20,000 nucleotides of DNA from IMG/VR virus record IMGVR_UViG_3300023184_009054. One strand, given 5' to 3'. This document shows positions 1-18,015 of the stretch, one piece after another. The notes below the pieces were generated by a model. It did not search any database, was not told where the DNA came from, and saw only the letters and a program-made list of their open reading frames with translations. Numbering within the stretch: position 1 is the first letter of the stretch; every line of letters starts with the position of its first letter. Made by a program: the position numbers and the translations under genes. This stretch comes from an uncultured virus (IMG/VR IMGVR_UViG_3300023184_009054). Taxonomy: Duplodnaviria > Heunggongvirae > Uroviricota > Caudoviricetes.

Positions 1-253
1 TTACCTTTTTTTCATATTTGTATTTAGCATAATCCATAATTTTGCAAAGTGGAGGATTAGCATTTGGAATAACTTCCACTAAATCAAAATTAGATTCTTC
101 TGCAAGCCTTCTTGCATTTTCAGTTGACATAATTCCAAGCTGCTCTTCATTTCTTACGACTCTTACAGTAAGAACTCTAATTTGATAATTTATTCTAAGT
201 TCGCTAGGTTTTTTTGGATCTTTATCATAATTCCGATAATTCTGATGATGCAT
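1..253 (-). CDS. infC: Translation initiation factor IF-3, N-terminal part (runs off the left edge)
   Basis: Manual translation from ATG at 253: MHHQNYRNYDKDPKKPSELRINYQIRVLTVRVVRNEEQLGIMSTENARRLAEESNFDLVEVIPNANPPLCKIMDYAKYKYEKKV. Matches the IF3-N signature (RIN..IR...VR....EQLG......A...A.....DLVEV.P.A.PP.C.IMDY.K.KYE). The ATG overlaps the upstream stop (TAATG) and has AAGGA upstream. Confidence 0.96.
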   Translation of the reverse strand, partial: MHHQNYRNYDKDPKKPSELRINYQIRVLTVRVVRNEEQLGIMSTENARRLAEESNFDLVEVIPNANPPLCKIMDYAKYKYEKKV

Positions 254-1800
254 TAAATACTTTCCTTGGTAAATGTCACATTTATAAGACTAATTTCTTT
301 AGATTTCAGAGATGTAGATATAACGCTGTCTAATTCATCTTTGTTAGATACAATAAATCCATTGCCGAAATTAAAAAATTGCTTAAACTTTTCAATATTA
401 TAAAATTTATTCATGTTATTACTTAGTATAAAAATTATAGGATTAAGTTTATTTTGAAACAAAGTGTGCAATTCGATCATGGAAATATTAAATGAATTTT
501 CACTCAACAATACAATTGGTCTAAGTTCTGGCCTTGATAGTTGTAAGCCCAAAGACCCCGGAATTGCAAATCCTGTAGAGTAATGAAATGCAGGGCTAAA
601 AAATCTATTTTCATAAACCCTCAATCTGGAAGCACTTGTGAGGAAATCGCCAGCATCAGCTATTATTGCCAAATTATTATCTTTGCATATAAGATCATTG
701 ATTTTATTGAAAAAATATTTTTCAGAAATGTATTCGTTATTTTTACAATCATCAAAATATTCATTATTTTTATAATTTTCAATTTTTGACTTAGAAAGAA
801 AATTTATTTCAAATAAAGAATTACAAAAATCAGAAAATGTTACATTATTGTAAACATGATTCTTTATATAAAGACCTTCAGTAGAGCAAAAAACAACATG
901 CCTTTTAGTAAATCTTGGAGATTGAAATCCAAGAGTCACATCTGATAAACATTCTCCAAAAACCAACAGACAGTCAGATTGATCTATGATTGCATTCACA
1001 TTTTCATCAGATGTTTTAGATCCGCAATAAACCCCACGAAACAAATGATTGTTCTCATCAACTGAACTTTTTCCAAGCAATGTTGTCATAAATGGAATAT
1101 TGTGCTTTTCTGCAAATCTAACAATCTTTTTGCTTAGTCCATATCTTATAATTTGAACGCCTATTAATATCACAGGGCTTTTACTTTCGGCAATCCAATC
1201 TGAAGTTTCTTTTATTGAATCCTGTAATGTTTCTTTGTCACTTGTTTTGCTATTTGGAGTTCCATCACGATAAACATCATATCTGATTGGTGTATTAGCT
1301 ACATCTATAGGAAGCTCTAAATAAATAGGCTGCTTGTTTTTCACAAGTGCCTCCAATCCCTCATCGATAGCCAGACCTGCTTTTGTAGCATCATTTAAAA
1401 TAGTCGAATAACAAGTAATGTTTTTAAATATTTTCTGTTGGTTGTCAAAACTTCTCACGACATGATGTAATAAAAAATCTTCATTCCTTGATTTTATAGG
1501 AGGTGACATGGATATCACAATGACTGGTGATTTCTCTGAGTATGCACCCGCAATTGAATTACAAAGCTTTAAAGCTCCAGCATTGTAATTCGCACAAACG
1601 CAACCAGTTCCTTGAATCCTAGCGTAAATGTCAGCAGCAAATCCAGAACTGTTTTCATCTTTATTGGCAATAAATTTTATTTTAGAATTATTATTTATAT
1701 TTTCTATGAAATTATTATTGTGACCACCAACAACTCCAAAAATGTGTTTAACACCAATGTTTTCAAGCCTTTCAATCAAAAAATTTGAAACTAGTGACAT
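253..1800 (-). CDS. Thiamine diphosphate-dependent 2-oxoacid decarboxylase family protein (pyruvate/indolepyruvate decarboxylase-like), degenerate cofactor motif
   Basis: L.ERL..IGVKHIFGV.G, DE...GFAADIYAR, GAYSEKSPVI, LLHH, KQPIYLELPID, TTLLGKS, GFAIPGSLG. The GDG motif is replaced by SEN. Confidence 0.9.
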   Translation of the reverse strand: MSLVSNFLIERLENIGVKHIFGVVGGHNNNFIENINNNSKIKFIANKDENSSGFAADIYARIQGTGCVCANYNAGALKLCNSIAGAYSEKSPVIVISMSPPIKSRNEDFLLHHVVRSFDNQQKIFKNITCYSTILNDATKAGLAIDEGLEALVKNKQPIYLELPIDVANTPIRYDVYRDGTPNSKTSDKETLQDSIKETSDWIAESKSPVILIGVQIIRYGLSKKIVRFAEKHNIPFMTTLLGKSSVDENNHLFRGVYCGSKTSDENVNAIIDQSDCLLVFGECLSDVTLGFQSPRFTKRHVVFCSTEGLYIKNHVYNNVTFSDFCNSLFEINFLSKSKIENYKNNEYFDDCKNNEYISEKYFFNKINDLICKDNNLAIIADAGDFLTSASRLRVYENRFFSPAFHYSTGFAIPGSLGLQLSRPELRPIVLLSENSFNISMIELHTLFQNKLNPIIFILSNNMNKFYNIEKFKQFFNFGNGFIVSNKDELDSVISTSLKSKEISLINVTFTKESI

Positions 1801-5622: not shown

Positions 5623-6123
5623 TTAATTCCTATGAATGTAAATTGGCTTACCAATTTGTGAAATTAAAATTCCATTTTGATGATCTATTTCATGTTGATA
5701 AATAATAGAATTGAAATTATCAACATCTTCCTCAAATTCACTAATTACGAGCATTGGATTATTGTCAGAAACCAATAGCCTTTTACCTTTTATCTTAATT
5801 TTTTCAAATCTGTCAACTTCGTACCTTTGAAGATTTCCATTAGAATCTTTCAAAGACAGACACCCCTCAATGGATTTAACCTTTTCTCCAACACCTTCAT
5901 AACTACAATGAAAAAAATATTCATTTTTTTTTAAATTAATGATAACAAAAAAATCATATGGAATTCCAACTTGGACTGCTGACAATCCGACCCCATTGTT
6001 ATCAAGGCAAATTTGCTCCATATGCATCCCAAGCTTGTATAAATCCAAAAGATTATCAGTTGGAGTTATACATGCTAAAGGAATATCTTTGGTGTCTACT
6101 AATCGCAAAGACTTAAAGTCCAT
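5623..6123 (-). CDS. def: Peptide deformylase
   Basis: All three motifs present: GVGLSAVQ, EGCLS, QHEIDHQNG. Confidence 0.96.
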   Translation of the reverse strand: MDFKSLRLVDTKDIPLACITPTDNLLDLYKLGMHMEQICLDNNGVGLSAVQVGIPYDFFVIINLKKNEYFFHCSYEGVGEKVKSIEGCLSLKDSNGNLQRYEVDRFEKIKIKGKRLLVSDNNPMLVISEFEEDVDNFNSIIYQHEIDHQNGILISQIGKPIYIHRN

Positions 6124-6396: not shown

Positions 6397-6687
6397 CTAT
6401 ACTTTTTTGTTTCTACGAAAAGGCTTATTATCTTTCTTTTCAGTTTTTCGATTAGGAAAATTTTCTCGCAACTTCATTTTAAGTCTTTGAAGTTCTGCAT
6501 CTCTTTTCTTTTTTCTCTTTTTCTTAGATTCGCTTTCATAGAACTCATGCTCTTTATAATCATGCAGCACTCCAGCATCTGTTACTGCTTTTTTAAAAGT
6601 TGCAAACATTCTTCTAAATGCAATTTCCCTTTCATCTCTAGAACAATTTGGATGCATATCCCTTAGTTCCACTCTTACATTTCTCAT
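6397..6687 (-). CDS. rpsU: Ribosomal protein bS21-like, divergent
   Basis: N-terminal VRVEL, then F..FKKAVTDAGVLHDYKEHEFYESESKKKRKKKRDA, matching the bS21 pattern RRFK+....G+L.E.+.REFYEKPS..R+RK..A. Confidence 0.85.
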   Translation of the reverse strand: MRNVRVELRDMHPNCSRDEREIAFRRMFATFKKAVTDAGVLHDYKEHEFYESESKKKRKKKRDAELQRLKMKLRENFPNRKTEKKDNKPFRRNKKV

Positions 6688-12671: not shown

Positions 12672-13140
12672 TTTGCTTTTTCTCATCAAGACTATCTACA
12701 ACCTTTGTGGTCATTTTGCATCTGTTTTTATCAGCATCTAAAAATTCGTCTAAATTTTTAACACTTATAAGCGACCAATGCGGATCATCCAATGGAACAT
12801 GTTCTTTTTTTGTGTAATAAAATGATTCCATTGTATACCTATAAACTTTATTCTCAACTTCTTCATCAGTCATACCGCCAATTAAATCTTCACAAACTTC
12901 TTTGCAAATTTTAATCGCATCTTGGTCTGTCGCACATCCCAACTTTCTCATGACTTGAACAGCAGCAACAGCTTTATCTTTTTGCAAAAGGTCTATAATA
13001 TTTTTTTTCATCATACCATCAATGAAATCTGCTTTGGCCATAAAACGAGCCATAATTTGACCTCTCTTTGGAGCAAATCTCCTCACATCAAAAAAATACT
13101 GCTCAAAGTTTTTTTCATCAATAATCAATTCTTCAGACAT
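12664..13140 (-). CDS. Hypothetical protein (158 aa), coupled to the polymerase gene
   Basis: 8-nt overlap with the dnaE 3' end; GAGGA upstream. Confidence 0.8.
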   Translation of the reverse strand: MSEELIIDEKNFEQYFFDVRRFAPKRGQIMARFMAKADFIDGMMKKNIIDLLQKDKAVAAVQVMRKLGCATDQDAIKICKEVCEDLIGGMTDEEVENKVYRYTMESFYYTKKEHVPLDDPHWSLISVKNLDEFLDADKNRCKMTTKVVDSLDEKKQNE

Positions 13141-15874
13141 TTTTTTCCTCTTTTTCGTAATTTGAAAACTGTTCTAAAATTTCTTCTTCAGATAAATATT
13201 TATCTTTTTCAACCTCAGCAGATTTCATCAGATATACCCTACAATCAGTTTCCTTCGTTGGAAACTTATATACCCATCTTTGGTTAGGCAATTTTTTATT
13301 TTGCTCTAATGTATATGTTGGAAATCCTTTATCTGGTGCCTGTAATCTCAATCTAACTAAGTTACCTTTTTTTAATTCTGAATCCCATCTTTTAAAATCA
13401 TCTTCCCAAATGTTTATTTTATTTTTTTCCCCCAGAGCATCTTCTACCTCTAATTGACAATAAGTCGTTCCTTTTTTACTTTTACACATTTTTCTAACAA
13501 CTATTTCTACTTCAACTGGACAAATACAACCGATGTTTTCTTTGAATGCTTCAAATGTGTATCCTTTGAAATCCTTACTCTTTTCCAAATTATGAGTCCA
13601 AGCAAATCCATAATATTTTATTTCACAAGCTACAATACTTTTAAGTTCCTTTTTAAAAATTCGATCAATTTCATAATCATTAGGATTAAATGTTTCGATA
13701 GTAGGTAATGATAATTTTTTAGAATCTTCAAGTCTTTCAATGCTTTTTAAATTTCTAACCCAAAGCTTTTTTAGTTCCTTTAACCTATTAAACACTTTGT
13801 TCGTCTTTGTGATTTTATAATATCTTGTTTTTTGAACTTCAATAAAATCTTCAGTTCCTTCAATTGAAACATAATTGATTTCCAATTTAGGTTCGCCCTC
13901 ACCCTTTTCGCACTCGAATTTTCTTTCTGATTCTACCATTTCATTTACATCATATTTTTTCCACTCATCACCATCAAATGGATTAGCTCCATGAAAACTA
14001 TTCAACAATCTTATATCGTCAGGAAAAAGCTCTTTAAATTCTTCTTCGTATTGCGACATACTAACAGCAAATCTTTTCTTTTTATCTTCTATCTTTCTCG
14101 CACATTCTTTATAGTGTTCGTAAAATTTCCACAATGTGATTGGATCAGATTCATTAAAACACCTCAATCCAATCAAGCATTTTATAACACTAGCATCTGT
14201 ACCAAACTTAAAAAGAAAATCTCCAAATCCATTATATGGTTGACCAGAAACAATTTTTTCCGCTGGTGCTTCTCCAACACCCTTTATATTTGACAGGCCA
14301 TAATAAATAACATCATCTATAAGCTCAAAATTTTTCTTAGACTTATTGATGTCAATCTTGTGCATCTCTATGTTGTGTCTTTTTGCTTCCATTTTATAGT
14401 CTTTAATCTTTTCGCTTAATGTTTCACAACTTAAAACAGCAGCATAAAACTCGTGAGGGTAATGAGCCTTTAAATATAATAGACGAGAAGATACATAAGT
14501 ATAAGCTACGGAATGACTTAAGTTAAATCCATATTCCGCAAATGATTTTATCTGGTCAAATAAATTGATTGCCTCTTTTTCAGATATGTTAAGATTTTTT
14601 TGACCTTTCTCTATGAACATAATTTCATATTTCTTAAAGGCCTCCGCTTTCTTTTTTGAAATAGCCTTTCTAACAATTTCACAATCTCTGAATGGTATTT
14701 CTCCAACAACATTCAAAATTTTCATAATTTGTTCTTGGAAAACCATAACTCCATAAGTTTTTCCAAGAATAGGTTCAACAAGAGGATGCAAACTATATTC
14801 TTCGTTGCCCTTCTTCCTCTCAATATATCTTTCATGCATTTTCATGTTCAAAGGGCCAGGCCTATAAAGAGCAGTGTATGCAACCAAATCCTCAAATGAA
14901 TCAACTCCACCAGACCTAACTAATTTTCTAATACCTTCTGAATCAAACTGAAAAATACATTTTAAATCACCTTCGTTTGCCATCTCTAAGGCTTTAGAAT
15001 CATTACGCCATTTGATGATATCTGTCCAATCAGATTGGTTTGGCATGGCACAAATACTATCAATTGACTTTCTTCTTTTTACCAATTCACAACATTTACT
15101 GATTTGCATTAAATTAGAAATTACAAGTAAATCAAACTTGACCAATCCTACTGGTTGTAAATCTTGACCATTAAGGCCTTCTACCCATGCAGATGCTTGT
15201 GGATTGTCTTTTCTCTTAACCAATGGAACAAGATCATGCAATGGAATCGAGCTTATGATCAAACCACCAGCATGTTGCCCCATACCTCTATTTCTATTTA
15301 TAAGTCTTTTGGCTGCGTTTGATACATCTGGATACTTTTCACAATAATCTTTCAATTTTGGATATTGCGATAGTGCTACATCCCAAGTCAATGGCTTTCC
15401 CTCATCATCTTTTGCTTCAAGCTCTTTTGTAAGCTCAAGTATTTCTCCTCTTGCCTCTCCATGAACCCTAGCCATATCAATCAAAGCACTCTTCATGCCA
15501 AATGTTGTGTAATTGCCGATATTGCAAACATATTCCTTGCCAAATGTTTCAGAAGCCCACTTGTTTTTCAAATAATCTCTAACTTCAGAAAGGTAATCGA
15601 CATCAATATCTGGCATATCTCCTTGAACAAACTTGGGATCTTTGTTGATGTCAAAATCATCCACTATGCCCAAAATATAGGGAACTAAAATATTATTTTC
15701 ATTCTTGGGGAATTTTTTCTTTTCTTTAAATAAATTCAAAAAATATTCTGACTTTCCTTGAATCTCAATTTCTTTGATTTCCCACTCAAGTCTTTTTTTA
15801 TGCTTTTCACATAATTGTTTTCTTTCAAAAATATACCACAAAAGCTGTTCGATTTTTTGAACTGTCGTTAACAT
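13133..15874 (-). CDS. dnaE: DNA polymerase III alpha subunit-like (family C), lacking PHP domain
   Basis: MPDIDVD, GQHAGGLII, GLVKFDLL, IFQFDSEG, ALYRPGP, TYGVMVFQEQIM, FAEYGFNLSHSVAY, YLKAHYPHEFYAA, GLSNIKGVG, C-terminal OB-like region. ATG at 15874 has AAGGTG upstream. Confidence 0.95.
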   Translation of the reverse strand: MLTTVQKIEQLLWYIFERKQLCEKHKKRLEWEIKEIEIQGKSEYFLNLFKEKKKFPKNENNILVPYILGIVDDFDINKDPKFVQGDMPDIDVDYLSEVRDYLKNKWASETFGKEYVCNIGNYTTFGMKSALIDMARVHGEARGEILELTKELEAKDDEGKPLTWDVALSQYPKLKDYCEKYPDVSNAAKRLINRNRGMGQHAGGLIISSIPLHDLVPLVKRKDNPQASAWVEGLNGQDLQPVGLVKFDLLVISNLMQISKCCELVKRRKSIDSICAMPNQSDWTDIIKWRNDSKALEMANEGDLKCIFQFDSEGIRKLVRSGGVDSFEDLVAYTALYRPGPLNMKMHERYIERKKGNEEYSLHPLVEPILGKTYGVMVFQEQIMKILNVVGEIPFRDCEIVRKAISKKKAEAFKKYEIMFIEKGQKNLNISEKEAINLFDQIKSFAEYGFNLSHSVAYTYVSSRLLYLKAHYPHEFYAAVLSCETLSEKIKDYKMEAKRHNIEMHKIDINKSKKNFELIDDVIYYGLSNIKGVGEAPAEKIVSGQPYNGFGDFLFKFGTDASVIKCLIGLRCFNESDPITLWKFYEHYKECARKIEDKKKRFAVSMSQYEEEFKELFPDDIRLLNSFHGANPFDGDEWKKYDVNEMVESERKFECEKGEGEPKLEINYVSIEGTEDFIEVQKTRYYKITKTNKVFNRLKELKKLWVRNLKSIERLEDSKKLSLPTIETFNPNDYEIDRIFKKELKSIVACEIKYYGFAWTHNLEKSKDFKGYTFEAFKENIGCICPVEVEIVVRKMCKSKKGTTYCQLEVEDALGEKNKINIWEDDFKRWDSELKKGNLVRLRLQAPDKGFPTYTLEQNKKLPNQRWVYKFPTKETDCRVYLMKSAEVEKDKYLSEEEILEQFSNYEKEEKNV

Positions 15875-15899: not shown

Positions 15900-15908
15900 A
15901 TTATATCA
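15900..15908 (-). promoter_or_regulatory. Extended -10 promoter element TGaTATAAT upstream of dnaE
   Basis: Perfect TGnTATAAT on the minus strand, 25 nt before the ATG at 15874. Confidence 0.65.
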
Positions 15909-17043: not shown

Positions 17044-18015
17044 ATGTCATTCAAGAGCTTTCAAGAATATTTAAACGATACTGGCAAAATGGTTGAAAAG
17101 CCAGAAGTTAAAGTGGTTGCTGGATATGAAGGAGAAACCCCAACCTCTCCAGAAAAAACCAAAAAAGACCCAAATGCTGGTGGAGCTAAAGATTCTAAAT
17201 CTACCAACAAGCCATATAAAGCTGGCACTGATGCTAAAAATCCCAATAAAGCAGAAAAAGGATTTGCTCATGAAGGAGATTCAGATCTTAAGTATGAGCC
17301 AACCACAAATGTAAAAAAGAGCAACTATGGTGGCGATGAAGTTAAATCTTGGCTTGATTCTTCAAGCGTAACAGAATGGCTCAATAAAACTCGCAATCTT
17401 TCTGGTGCAAAATTTGTAAGTCAGATGCGAAATGAAACAATTGGAACTTCAATCGGACAAATCAAAGAAACAGTAAATTTGTGCGAAAATAATTCCAAAA
17501 ATATTCAACAACTTATTTTTGAATTAAAACGCCACAAATTATTAGGAAAATTCATTACAGAAGCTTGCAAACATGGAACTGGCATCAAGGCAATCATAGC
17601 AGAAATCAAGAAAAATACTCTTTTTCAAAAAGCAATTAATGAAATGAGCTATATGTCTTCAGATAATGAAGATGGTATGTCGGATGATGAATACAAACCA
17701 GATATGTCAAATGATCATAGTGACGAAGAAGAAAATGATATATCAGATGAAGATGAATATAGTGATGAAGACGAAGATAGCGATGAAGATGAATATAGTG
17801 ATGAAGACGAAGATAGCGATGAAGATAGCGATGAAGATGAAATGTCAGACGAAGATGAAGATGAAATGTCAGACGAAGATGAAGATGAAATGTCAGATGA
17901 AGATAATTCCCATAAAGATGACGACTCTGCATTATCTGATCCTTTTAGTAGGGGTCATGCCTCTCATGCCCTTAGAAAAATGGGGCCAAGACCAGAACCA
18001 TCTGATGAATTTTAA
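17044..18015 (+). CDS. Hypothetical protein with long Asp/Glu-rich repeat tail, possible prohead core/scaffold-type protein
   Basis: N-terminus MSFKSFQEYLND; SD GGAG; about 90-residue D/E/S tract. Confidence 0.8.
   Translation: MSFKSFQEYLNDTGKMVEKPEVKVVAGYEGETPTSPEKTKKDPNAGGAKDSKSTNKPYKAGTDAKNPNKAEKGFAHEGDSDLKYEPTTNVKKSNYGGDEVKSWLDSSSVTEWLNKTRNLSGAKFVSQMRNETIGTSIGQIKETVNLCENNSKNIQQLIFELKRHKLLGKFITEACKHGTGIKAIIAEIKKNTLFQKAINEMSYMSSDNEDGMSDDEYKPDMSNDHSDEEENDISDEDEYSDEDEDSDEDEYSDEDEDSDEDSDEDEMSDEDEDEMSDEDEDEMSDEDNSHKDDDSALSDPFSRGHASHALRKMGPRPEPSDEF
17746..17901 (+). repeat. Coding tandem repeats: 36-nt x2, a 12-nt unit, 24-nt x3
   Basis: 17746-17817 is two identical 36-mers (DEDEYSDEDEDS); 17830-17901 is three 24-mers (DEDEMSDE) with one mismatch. 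Confidence 0.92.

Follow-up and report, generated by a model that had tools for sequence, protein, structure and literature searches.

Enzymes divided between two intein-free genes are known from T4-like phages, as exemplified by the family B polymerase gp43A/gp43B, the NrdA of Aeh1 and the topoisomerase gp39/gp60, in all of which the two pieces associate non-covalently. For family C polymerases, passages of Iyer 2021 (PMC7824862) describe a minimal Pol III alpha split into an NTP-binding and a Mg2+/template-binding protein in the T4-like group 2.2 jumbo phages, with PolB present and the other Pol III domains absent. In the cyanobacterial and phage-like "fractured genes" DnaE, two pieces are ligated by protein trans-splicing, as stated in passages of Dassa et al. 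2009 (PMC2677866). The subject here is a gene at 13133..15874 (minus strand) of a 20,000-nucleotide stretch from an uncultured virus (IMGVR_UViG_3300023184_009054), referred to below as the window. It encodes the C-terminal part of a DnaE (C-chain, from a C-gene), the N-terminal part of which (N-chain, from an N-gene) is a separate gene in related phages.

A description of a full-size split DnaE was not found in the text passages of the literature searched, and the supplement of Iyer 2021 could list these proteins. Al-Shayeb 2020 mentions dnaE once, as a marker (PMC7162821), the terms "split", "DnaE" and "polymerase III" do not occur in a 2026 jumbo-phage review, and the passages of PMC12926913 at 12 of 26 places leave the full-size split form undescribed.

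The C-gene and its N-gene counterpart

The open reading frame (ORF) starts at 15874, reads to 13133 and gives 913 amino acids (aa); an alternative GTG start would give 931 aa, and a 97%-identical relative uses the same ATG as the 913-aa form. The product corresponds to DnaE from about E. coli residue 285 on, with the D-x-D motif, the third catalytic Asp, fingers, HhH and OB. Pfam matched only positions 100-259 of the PF07733 profile, followed by the finger domain and HHH_6, NCBIfam DnaE models match mostly from model position ~330-400, and a PDB search returned family C polymerase with an E-value of 4e-72. The features of the gene are as follows.

13133..15874, minus strand: C-chain gene of the two-gene DnaE, 913 aa, with duplicate lobe, palm sheet, thumb, fingers, HhH and OB
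15623..15874, minus strand: conserved copy of the GS lobe of the palm, equivalent to about E. coli 285-398 and lacking GS, R362, R390 and R396; residues 1-84; from hhalign, structure and dN/dS
15692..15703, minus strand: N58-E-N60-N61, invariant Asn motif where the GS helix would begin; 94/94, N.NN-type in 66/70 clusters
15596..15613, minus strand: PDIDVD with catalytic D89 and D91, residues 88-93; from alignment to E. coli alpha and homolog alignment
15131..15139, minus strand: KFD with the third catalytic Asp, D248, residues 246-248; from E. coli alpha and homolog alignments
14594..15112, minus strand: fingers domain PF17657, including R402-K403, residues 255-427; from Pfam and homolog alignment
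14153..14371, minus strand: HhH motif PF14579, residues 502-574; from Pfam
13217..13573, minus strand: OB-fold domain, residues 768-886; predicted model against PDB, Z ~9, root-mean-square deviation (rmsd) 2.3-2.9 over ~90 residues
15881..15886, minus strand: Shine-Dalgarno (SD)-like AAGGTG, 6 nucleotides (nt) ahead of the ATG; read from the sequence
15900..15908, minus strand: extended -10-like TG-A-TATAAT, candidate promoter; read by eye

The preliminary description, made from the sequence alone, had held that the protein lacks both the PHP domain and the GRGS/FERF segment, and the analysis agrees. No PHP domain was found in the 913-aa protein by Pfam search, and the alignment with E. coli alpha begins only at query residue 61, which corresponds to E. 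coli 367. There NILVPYILGIVDDFDINKDPKFVQG faces GSLVAYALKITD...FERFLNPERVS, and GRGS and FERF/ER are thus judged absent. The loss is no sequencing accident, since neither RGS nor RF[LMI] stands ahead of D-x-D in any of the 70 split-type clusters (50% identity), as classified by pattern among 153 rows, 23 of which were unclassifiable in this way. The catalytic aspartates of PDID and KFD are intact as described: D89 and D91, which correspond to E. coli D401 and D403, and D248 are each present in 94/94 aligned C-chains, a set made up of the G002 protein and the 93 of 120 homologs that remained after removal of intein-bearing and near-identical rows. With all catalytic Asp invariant, the alternative of an inactive enzyme raised at that stage is unlikely. 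As for the promoter and SD ascribed to the gene, the SD-like sequence is present, and the promoter is only plausible, as its -10-like element was read by eye and a sigma-70 scan gave no -35/-10 pair at 15900..15908. The gene upstream is divergently oriented.

Of 63 related phage records with a split C-gene, 58 were found to carry a standalone gene with PHP, GRGS and FSRF, located upstream of the C-gene and in the same orientation, so that the part missing from the window protein is, as had been supposed, a separate gene in relatives. These 63 belong to the 70 records behind C-type loci, which further comprise five single-chain records, one without a match and one in which the contig begins inside the C-gene. 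PF07733 was matched twice in the four related contigs looked at first, at 100-259 in the window-type ORF and at 2-98 in another frame, 452-468 aa long and bearing PHP as well. The N-genes end in ...GPGRGSACGSL..YCLGITDVDP...LLFSRF(M/L)SE.RGGRS... and then a stop, and one of the records holding an N-gene encodes a C-chain 97% identical to the window protein. Over 45 of the 58 pairs, near-duplicates having been removed by hand, N-gene and C-gene are 0.6-20.9 kb apart with a median of 6.8 kb; in four of the five records without an N-gene the contig is cut short, with at most ~6.2 kb upstream of the C-gene, below this median. In the reverse direction, 23 of 41 N-gene loci have a C-gene on the record, 15 end within ~10.5 kb downstream and three break off within the gene. 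Record G001 is colinear with the window, at 92.8% DNA identity over 8.8 kb reaching the window's end, and in G001 the N-gene ends ~9.3 kb upstream of the C-gene. The natural pair of record G002 is uninterrupted, with chains of 462 and 875 aa.

Some records show other layouts. N-gene and C-gene are convergent, on opposite strands, at locus L168 (G069), the sole such case seen. Record G022, which has a split pair, also encodes a second DnaE (L169:1391-3106) of 571 aa, PHP-less, with RGS, RF and PDIDID in one chain. At L084 ~10370 (G023), an in-frame TAA occupies a conserved Thr position of an otherwise intact C-gene, either as an error or as the mark of a pseudogene.

The two chains meet exactly at E. 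coli R396|M399. The N-chain aligns with E. coli alpha up to R396, and the predicted N-chain structure corresponds to E. coli 14-398 (Z 29). In comparison with a profile built from 10 single-chain relatives, the match of intein-free N-chains stops at position 432 and that of most C-chains starts at 433, with the same complementarity in Pfam PF07733 (2-98 and 100-259) and PHROG 405 (43-440 and 441-1090). The GS motif (E. coli S364) together with R390 and R396 binds the triphosphate of the incoming dNTP, although no literature passage stating the roles of E. coli S364/R390/R396 was found. In the N-chain alignment, holding 86 of 123 sequences (mainly intein-bearing and heavily truncated rows left out), the R, G, S, R390 and R396 equivalents are each conserved in 86/86, and PDxD occurs in 0/123 N-chains. 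The GS motif and triphosphate arginines are hence not in the same chain as D-x-D, being located on the separate N-chain of relatives. The PHP of the N-chain bears HHDHEH[C/H]DH, with the last six positions conserved in 86/86, the Asp in 83/86 and the two N-terminal His in 70-71/86; the chains among these 86 without the full motif are truncated or frameshifted. This motif is defined as the active PHP motif in a passage of PMC12926913. According to a passage of PMC11646218, strand 2 is preceded by the GS motif and a 40-residue bundle.

Single-chain relatives, ~50-59% identical, are joined at exactly the same point (FSRFLS.AR..h-PDxDxDF), which makes the two parts compatible as one enzyme. Modelled alone by AlphaFold2, the C-chain is of low confidence at 84-94, 119-125, 197-205 and 212-244 and the N-chain at 393-396 and 427-439, that is, at the shared centre, a pattern that would fit, weakly, a composite active site.

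The junction is further characterized by a duplicated module. A local hhalign match (P 86%, E 4.8e-6) pairs C-chain residues 1-95 with the final 140 residues of the N-chain, and in a global alignment of the C-chain start with the N-chain end the tail RSICFDL falls on PDIDVDY; the predicted C-chain model aligns over 1..593 to E. coli 285..910. The N-chain in turn ends in an extra tail, typically 10-25 residues long, that reads RGG-[RK]-[SQ]-h-x-L-x-F and is an Asp-free copy of the D-x-D strand. The tail is short and DnaE-derived in 223 of the 243 sequences examined, where R, G and G are found in 222, 222 and 219 of the 223 tails, and the alternating hydrophobic pattern after RGG ends in F in 182. 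By sequence comparison, the segment spanning GS lobe and D-x-D strand is a duplicated one whose copies lost opposite motifs, since the C-chain start aligns to the N-chain end and both are conserved.

The preliminary description had suggested that the C-chain segment may be a decayed copy, which was not borne out. Residues E35, N58, N60, N61, P80 and G85 are invariant in 94/94, and the ratio of nonsynonymous to synonymous substitution rates (dN/dS) is 0.11 over the 66 codons that precede PDxD and 0.10 over the 170 that follow it, pooled from eight close, non-independent pairs among 49 sequences. Decay is accordingly rejected in favour of a diverged duplicate under purifying selection. The proportions of synonymous and nonsynonymous differences between the window and G001 are pS 0.24 and pN 0.006. 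In the ESM Atlas, residues 1-95 gave viral clusters bearing PF07733 at 0.91, which is a lead only. The clade L108/L112/L113 changes both RGG and G85 (by eye), a single event that was not counted as covariation.

Explanations of the split

A non-covalent heterodimeric replicase with a composite active site, in other words an intein-free two-gene family C polymerase of very large phages, is given a probability of about 0.8. It is the simplest reading, because neither chain has the whole site, each fully conserves its share, and single-chain relatives join there. The N-chain would supply PHP with the full proofreading motif and the palm lobe with R-G-S and the two triphosphate arginines, up to the E. 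coli R396 equivalent, and the C-chain would supply the three metal-binding aspartates, thumb, fingers, HhH and OB. Physical association of the two chains, which we infer from their complementarity, would then form one active site with PHP proofreading. The split may have arisen with a duplication of ~110-120 codons across the junction followed by reciprocal loss, in which the N-chain copy would have lost the aspartates and the C-chain copy GS and the arginines. Both conserved leftovers probably serve folding or assembly.

One tentative elaboration, held a little below even odds, is a domain-swapped heterodimer in which the Asn-rich C-chain lobe and the RGG-x-x-h-x-L-x-F strand of the N-chain pair as a second, non-catalytic module clasping the chains, as proposed from the mutual homology and conservation of the two leftovers. 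If true, such a clasp would constitute a duplication-degeneration-complementation route that splits an enzyme through its catalytic centre without inteins, and the split might be reversible, in that deletion between the repeats could regenerate single-chain forms.

In the bacterial replicase DnaE, the lobe that binds the triphosphate and the strand that binds the metals are normally regarded as a single folding unit. Across a widespread phage clade (70 split-type clusters) they are encoded by separate genes, and the proposed composite active site is therefore directly testable by mixing two proteins. Duplicating the junction and losing opposite motifs would be a plausible route to cutting an essential enzyme without a non-functional intermediate, and the pair may offer a natural AND-gated, proofreading polymerase scaffold. 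The division also explains why annotation pipelines call these genes truncated DnaE or stand-alone PHP proteins.

The split DnaE is probably the main replicase of these phages, because five large records have no family B polymerase and only a short PolA-like ORF. The family B model PF00136 matched 0/5 of these records, four of them at least 90% complete, and its control matched in 6/14 genomes; a very divergent PolB could escape the model. PolA-like ORFs, in frames of 408-441 aa, are present in 5/5, namely L159, L160 and L161 (G057, G062 and G016) together with G063 and G066, and the three loci named read HD[AG] at motif C.

Several observations weigh against such a two-chain replicase. Record G057 (430 kb, CheckV 97%, classed as provirus) carries the C-gene intact, and neither an N-gene nor PHP was found there. 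It also lacks the SpoVR-like gene found in 4/4 other large records and the acidic gene found in 3/4, which fits a missing block; G057 may thus be incomplete, but it is counted as an exception. Near-duplicates occur among the 63 records, with 36 distinct junction pairs at loci with both genes. For the window genome, the N-gene would lie outside the 20,000 nt, by analogy with relatives at an expected ~5 kb past the window edge. In the closest relatives the N-gene is itself broken by a stop and a frame change after HxH, so that recoding is needed. The duplicate lobe could occupy the site where the N-chain lobe must bind, and the low AlphaFold2 confidence at the shared centre may stem from shallow alignments. 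Models for beta clamp and clamp loader (PF13177, TIGR00663) gave no match in the 5/5 large records, although divergent phage versions could escape them.

Each chain might instead be closed on itself, with a self-sufficient, rewired C-chain in which the duplicate lobe fills the GS-lobe site and Asn58 takes the place of the GS serine, the N-chain being a PHP proofreading subunit only. The duplicate lobe is as constrained as the core by dN/dS and has invariant Asn residues, it is modelled with confidence on its own, and G057 holds a C-gene without an N-gene, all of which suits such an enzyme. It would nevertheless leave the N-chain R-G-S, R390 and R396 at 86/86 unexplained, and where R390/R396 lie the duplicate lobe has acidic D-F-D-I and no conserved Arg. 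Moreover, structural alignments to DnaE give an rmsd of 18-19 Å including residues 1-121 versus ~6.5 Å excluding them, showing that the model does not put the duplicate lobe in the native place, and a rewired C-chain is considered improbable. An accessory or repair enzyme, or a non-catalytic scaffold, with a PolA-like protein or the host polymerase copying the genome, is more doubtful still. In a passage of Iyer 2021 (PMC7824862), an accessory role is suggested for the split minimal Pol III found in other jumbo phages, and such a role for the present pair is in keeping with the PolA-like ORF and the unrecognised clamp or loader in 5/5 large records. Against it stand the full-size domain set, the intact proofreading motif, the OB fold, the invariance of all catalytic residues and the failure to find PolB; the PolA-like ORF is short, matched by the polymerase domain only, and has HD[AG] at motif C.

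Covalent joining into an ordinary single-chain DnaE, by RNA trans-splicing, by recombination between the duplicated segments or by an unrecognised split intein, is the least probable of the explanations considered. Single-chain relatives joined at the same point do exist, and elsewhere these polymerase genes contain many cis inteins and some group I introns. At the junction itself, however, both segments are DnaE-derived and conserved as protein, a constraint that would serve no purpose in sequence destined for removal as RNA, and the N-tail of 10-25 residues is too short for an N-intein (88-105 residues in a passage of PMC2677866). No intein halves were found at the N-chain end or the C-chain start by intein models and alignment, and the same models missed L135, so that the test is of limited sensitivity. 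The window protein gave no intein model match and its start aligns to the palm lobe, in line with the earlier remark that no IntC-like N-terminus is visible; its FVQGDMPD offers no Asn|Cys/Ser/Thr junction before PDxD, and a loose pattern of this type occurs in 1/120 homologs. Locus L135:2336-6240 itself encodes a distant phage DnaE (~30% identity) in two overlapping ORFs; the break falls at the same point, the ends look intein-like by eye, and no intein hidden Markov model match was obtained.

On the history of the preferred two-chain enzyme, a FastTree tree of 130 rows placed split and near single-chain forms in one clade (support 100) against 43 outgroup rows, with 17 near single-chain proteins nested inside the split forms, as they also were in a 56-row tree whose search was unfinished. 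The nesting would suggest re-fusion of the single-chain forms, but an approximately unbiased (AU) test on 40 chosen rows (23 split, eight near single-chain, nine outgroup) did not reject one clade for the split forms (p 0.57), with the constrained tree scoring higher. Re-fusion as an established direction was dropped for this reason, and the common clade of split and near single-chain forms is the part of the history that stands.

Inserts in the N-gene and genomic setting

The N-gene of G001, G003 and G004 runs into a stop right after ...EHLHLH and continues as coding sequence 7 nt further on. Among 52 distinct N-gene contexts, 14 have 7-8-nt inserts, six have 40-47-nt inserts, 30 have none and four have longer or unresolved ones; the sister loci L041/L042 have no insert at the N-gene start. 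The sites are as follows.

N-gene start, 7-8-nt inserts: L022/L034 (G001), L020, L021, L030, L035-L038, L046, L049, L073, L074, L092, L102, L104, L112, L113
N-gene start, after the Asp codon following HxH, 40-47-nt inserts: L047, L048, L056-L059, L066, L071, L100, L148
PHP motif-I region of N-genes, group I introns RF00028 (Rfam): L117:3827-4052, L155:757-982, L149:2722-2984
Just upstream of the N-gene, ORFs ending HIFP.KAF...NCLENL.P, HNH-like by eye: L030, L036, L038, L049, L056, L100, L148, L067

The short inserts come directly after the HxH of PHP, behind its second His, and every one whose sequence was listed begins with TAG or TGA. Their last triplet is usually N-A-Y and matches a His codon at two or more positions in 10/11 distinct inserts (chance ~0.25; related lineages are not independent). 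They are candidate ribosomal hops, resembling the bypassing demonstrated for T4 gene 60 and phage Hau3 according to a passage of PMC10732093. If they are, a hop over the 7-nt stop-containing gap would be needed for the N-chain in the closest relatives and could gate replicase assembly. Most of the 40-47-nt inserts have an evident G+C-rich inverted repeat and some an in-frame stop, making them candidate bypass elements. Rfam identified group I introns at three of the four longer or unresolved sites, and as these occupy the same region in other N-genes, the PHP motif-I region is a hotspot for mobile inserts. The ORF with the HNH-like end lies directly upstream of the N-gene in 7/20 insert contexts versus 1/32 insert-free ones, and no Pfam match was found for these ORFs.

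The neighbouring genes in the window were assigned as follows.

2-253: IF3 N-domain (Pfam)
253-1800: thiamine pyrophosphate (TPP)-dependent enzyme (Pfam)
5623-6123: peptide deformylase (Pfam)
6397-6687: bS21 (Pfam)
17044-18015, plus strand: very acidic, repeat-tailed 323-aa protein, no family match

The IF3 N-domain, bS21, peptide deformylase and TPP enzyme genes, together with the size of related records (up to 572 kb), suggest that the window comes from a very large phage. The gene of the acidic 323-aa protein sits between both polymerase genes in G001-G004 and has a match in 3/4 other large records with both, and the SpoVR-like gene lies a few kb upstream of the N-gene (L044:8132-9736; G016, G062, G063, G066). 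In the L117 record, a tmRNA gene (L117:7763-8121) lies between the two polymerase genes.

Comparison with known systems

The nearest described form is the split minimal Pol III alpha of Iyer 2021, in the passages of which the family C core likewise lies in separate, distant genes with the same division into NTP and Mg2+/template binding; reconstitution of one enzyme was also proposed there, and no intein is mentioned in those passages. In contrast to that form, the present enzyme is full-size (PHP, thumb, fingers, HhH, OB), no family B replicase was found beside it, and it has close single-chain relatives and a reciprocal junction duplication, the latter undescribed in the Iyer 2021 passages. 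The present system works like the Iyer 2021 split, yet two defining features of that form are lacking, as other Pol III domains are present and no family B replicase was found; it is therefore not classed there and is compared by description.

With the split-intein DnaE, as far as the passages of Dassa et al. 2009 go, the system shares a dnaE in two genes, each with its own expression signals, and differs in having no intein halves at the junction, where the overlap is a duplicate of the polymerase itself.

Once the chains are summed, domain order and catalytic residues are the same as in single-chain DnaE1 (E. coli 2hnh, Taq 2hpi, mycobacterial 5lew/7pu7, the phage group 3.2 type and clade relatives such as LR756511.1), from which the present enzyme is distinguished by two genes 0.6-21 kb apart, ~85 extra residues (the duplicate lobe) and an extra tail of 10-25 residues. 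As for the split enzymes of T4-like phages, gp43A/gp43B, Aeh1 NrdA and gp39/gp60, they have other folds and are, to our knowledge, simple cuts without a conserved duplicated module on both sides.

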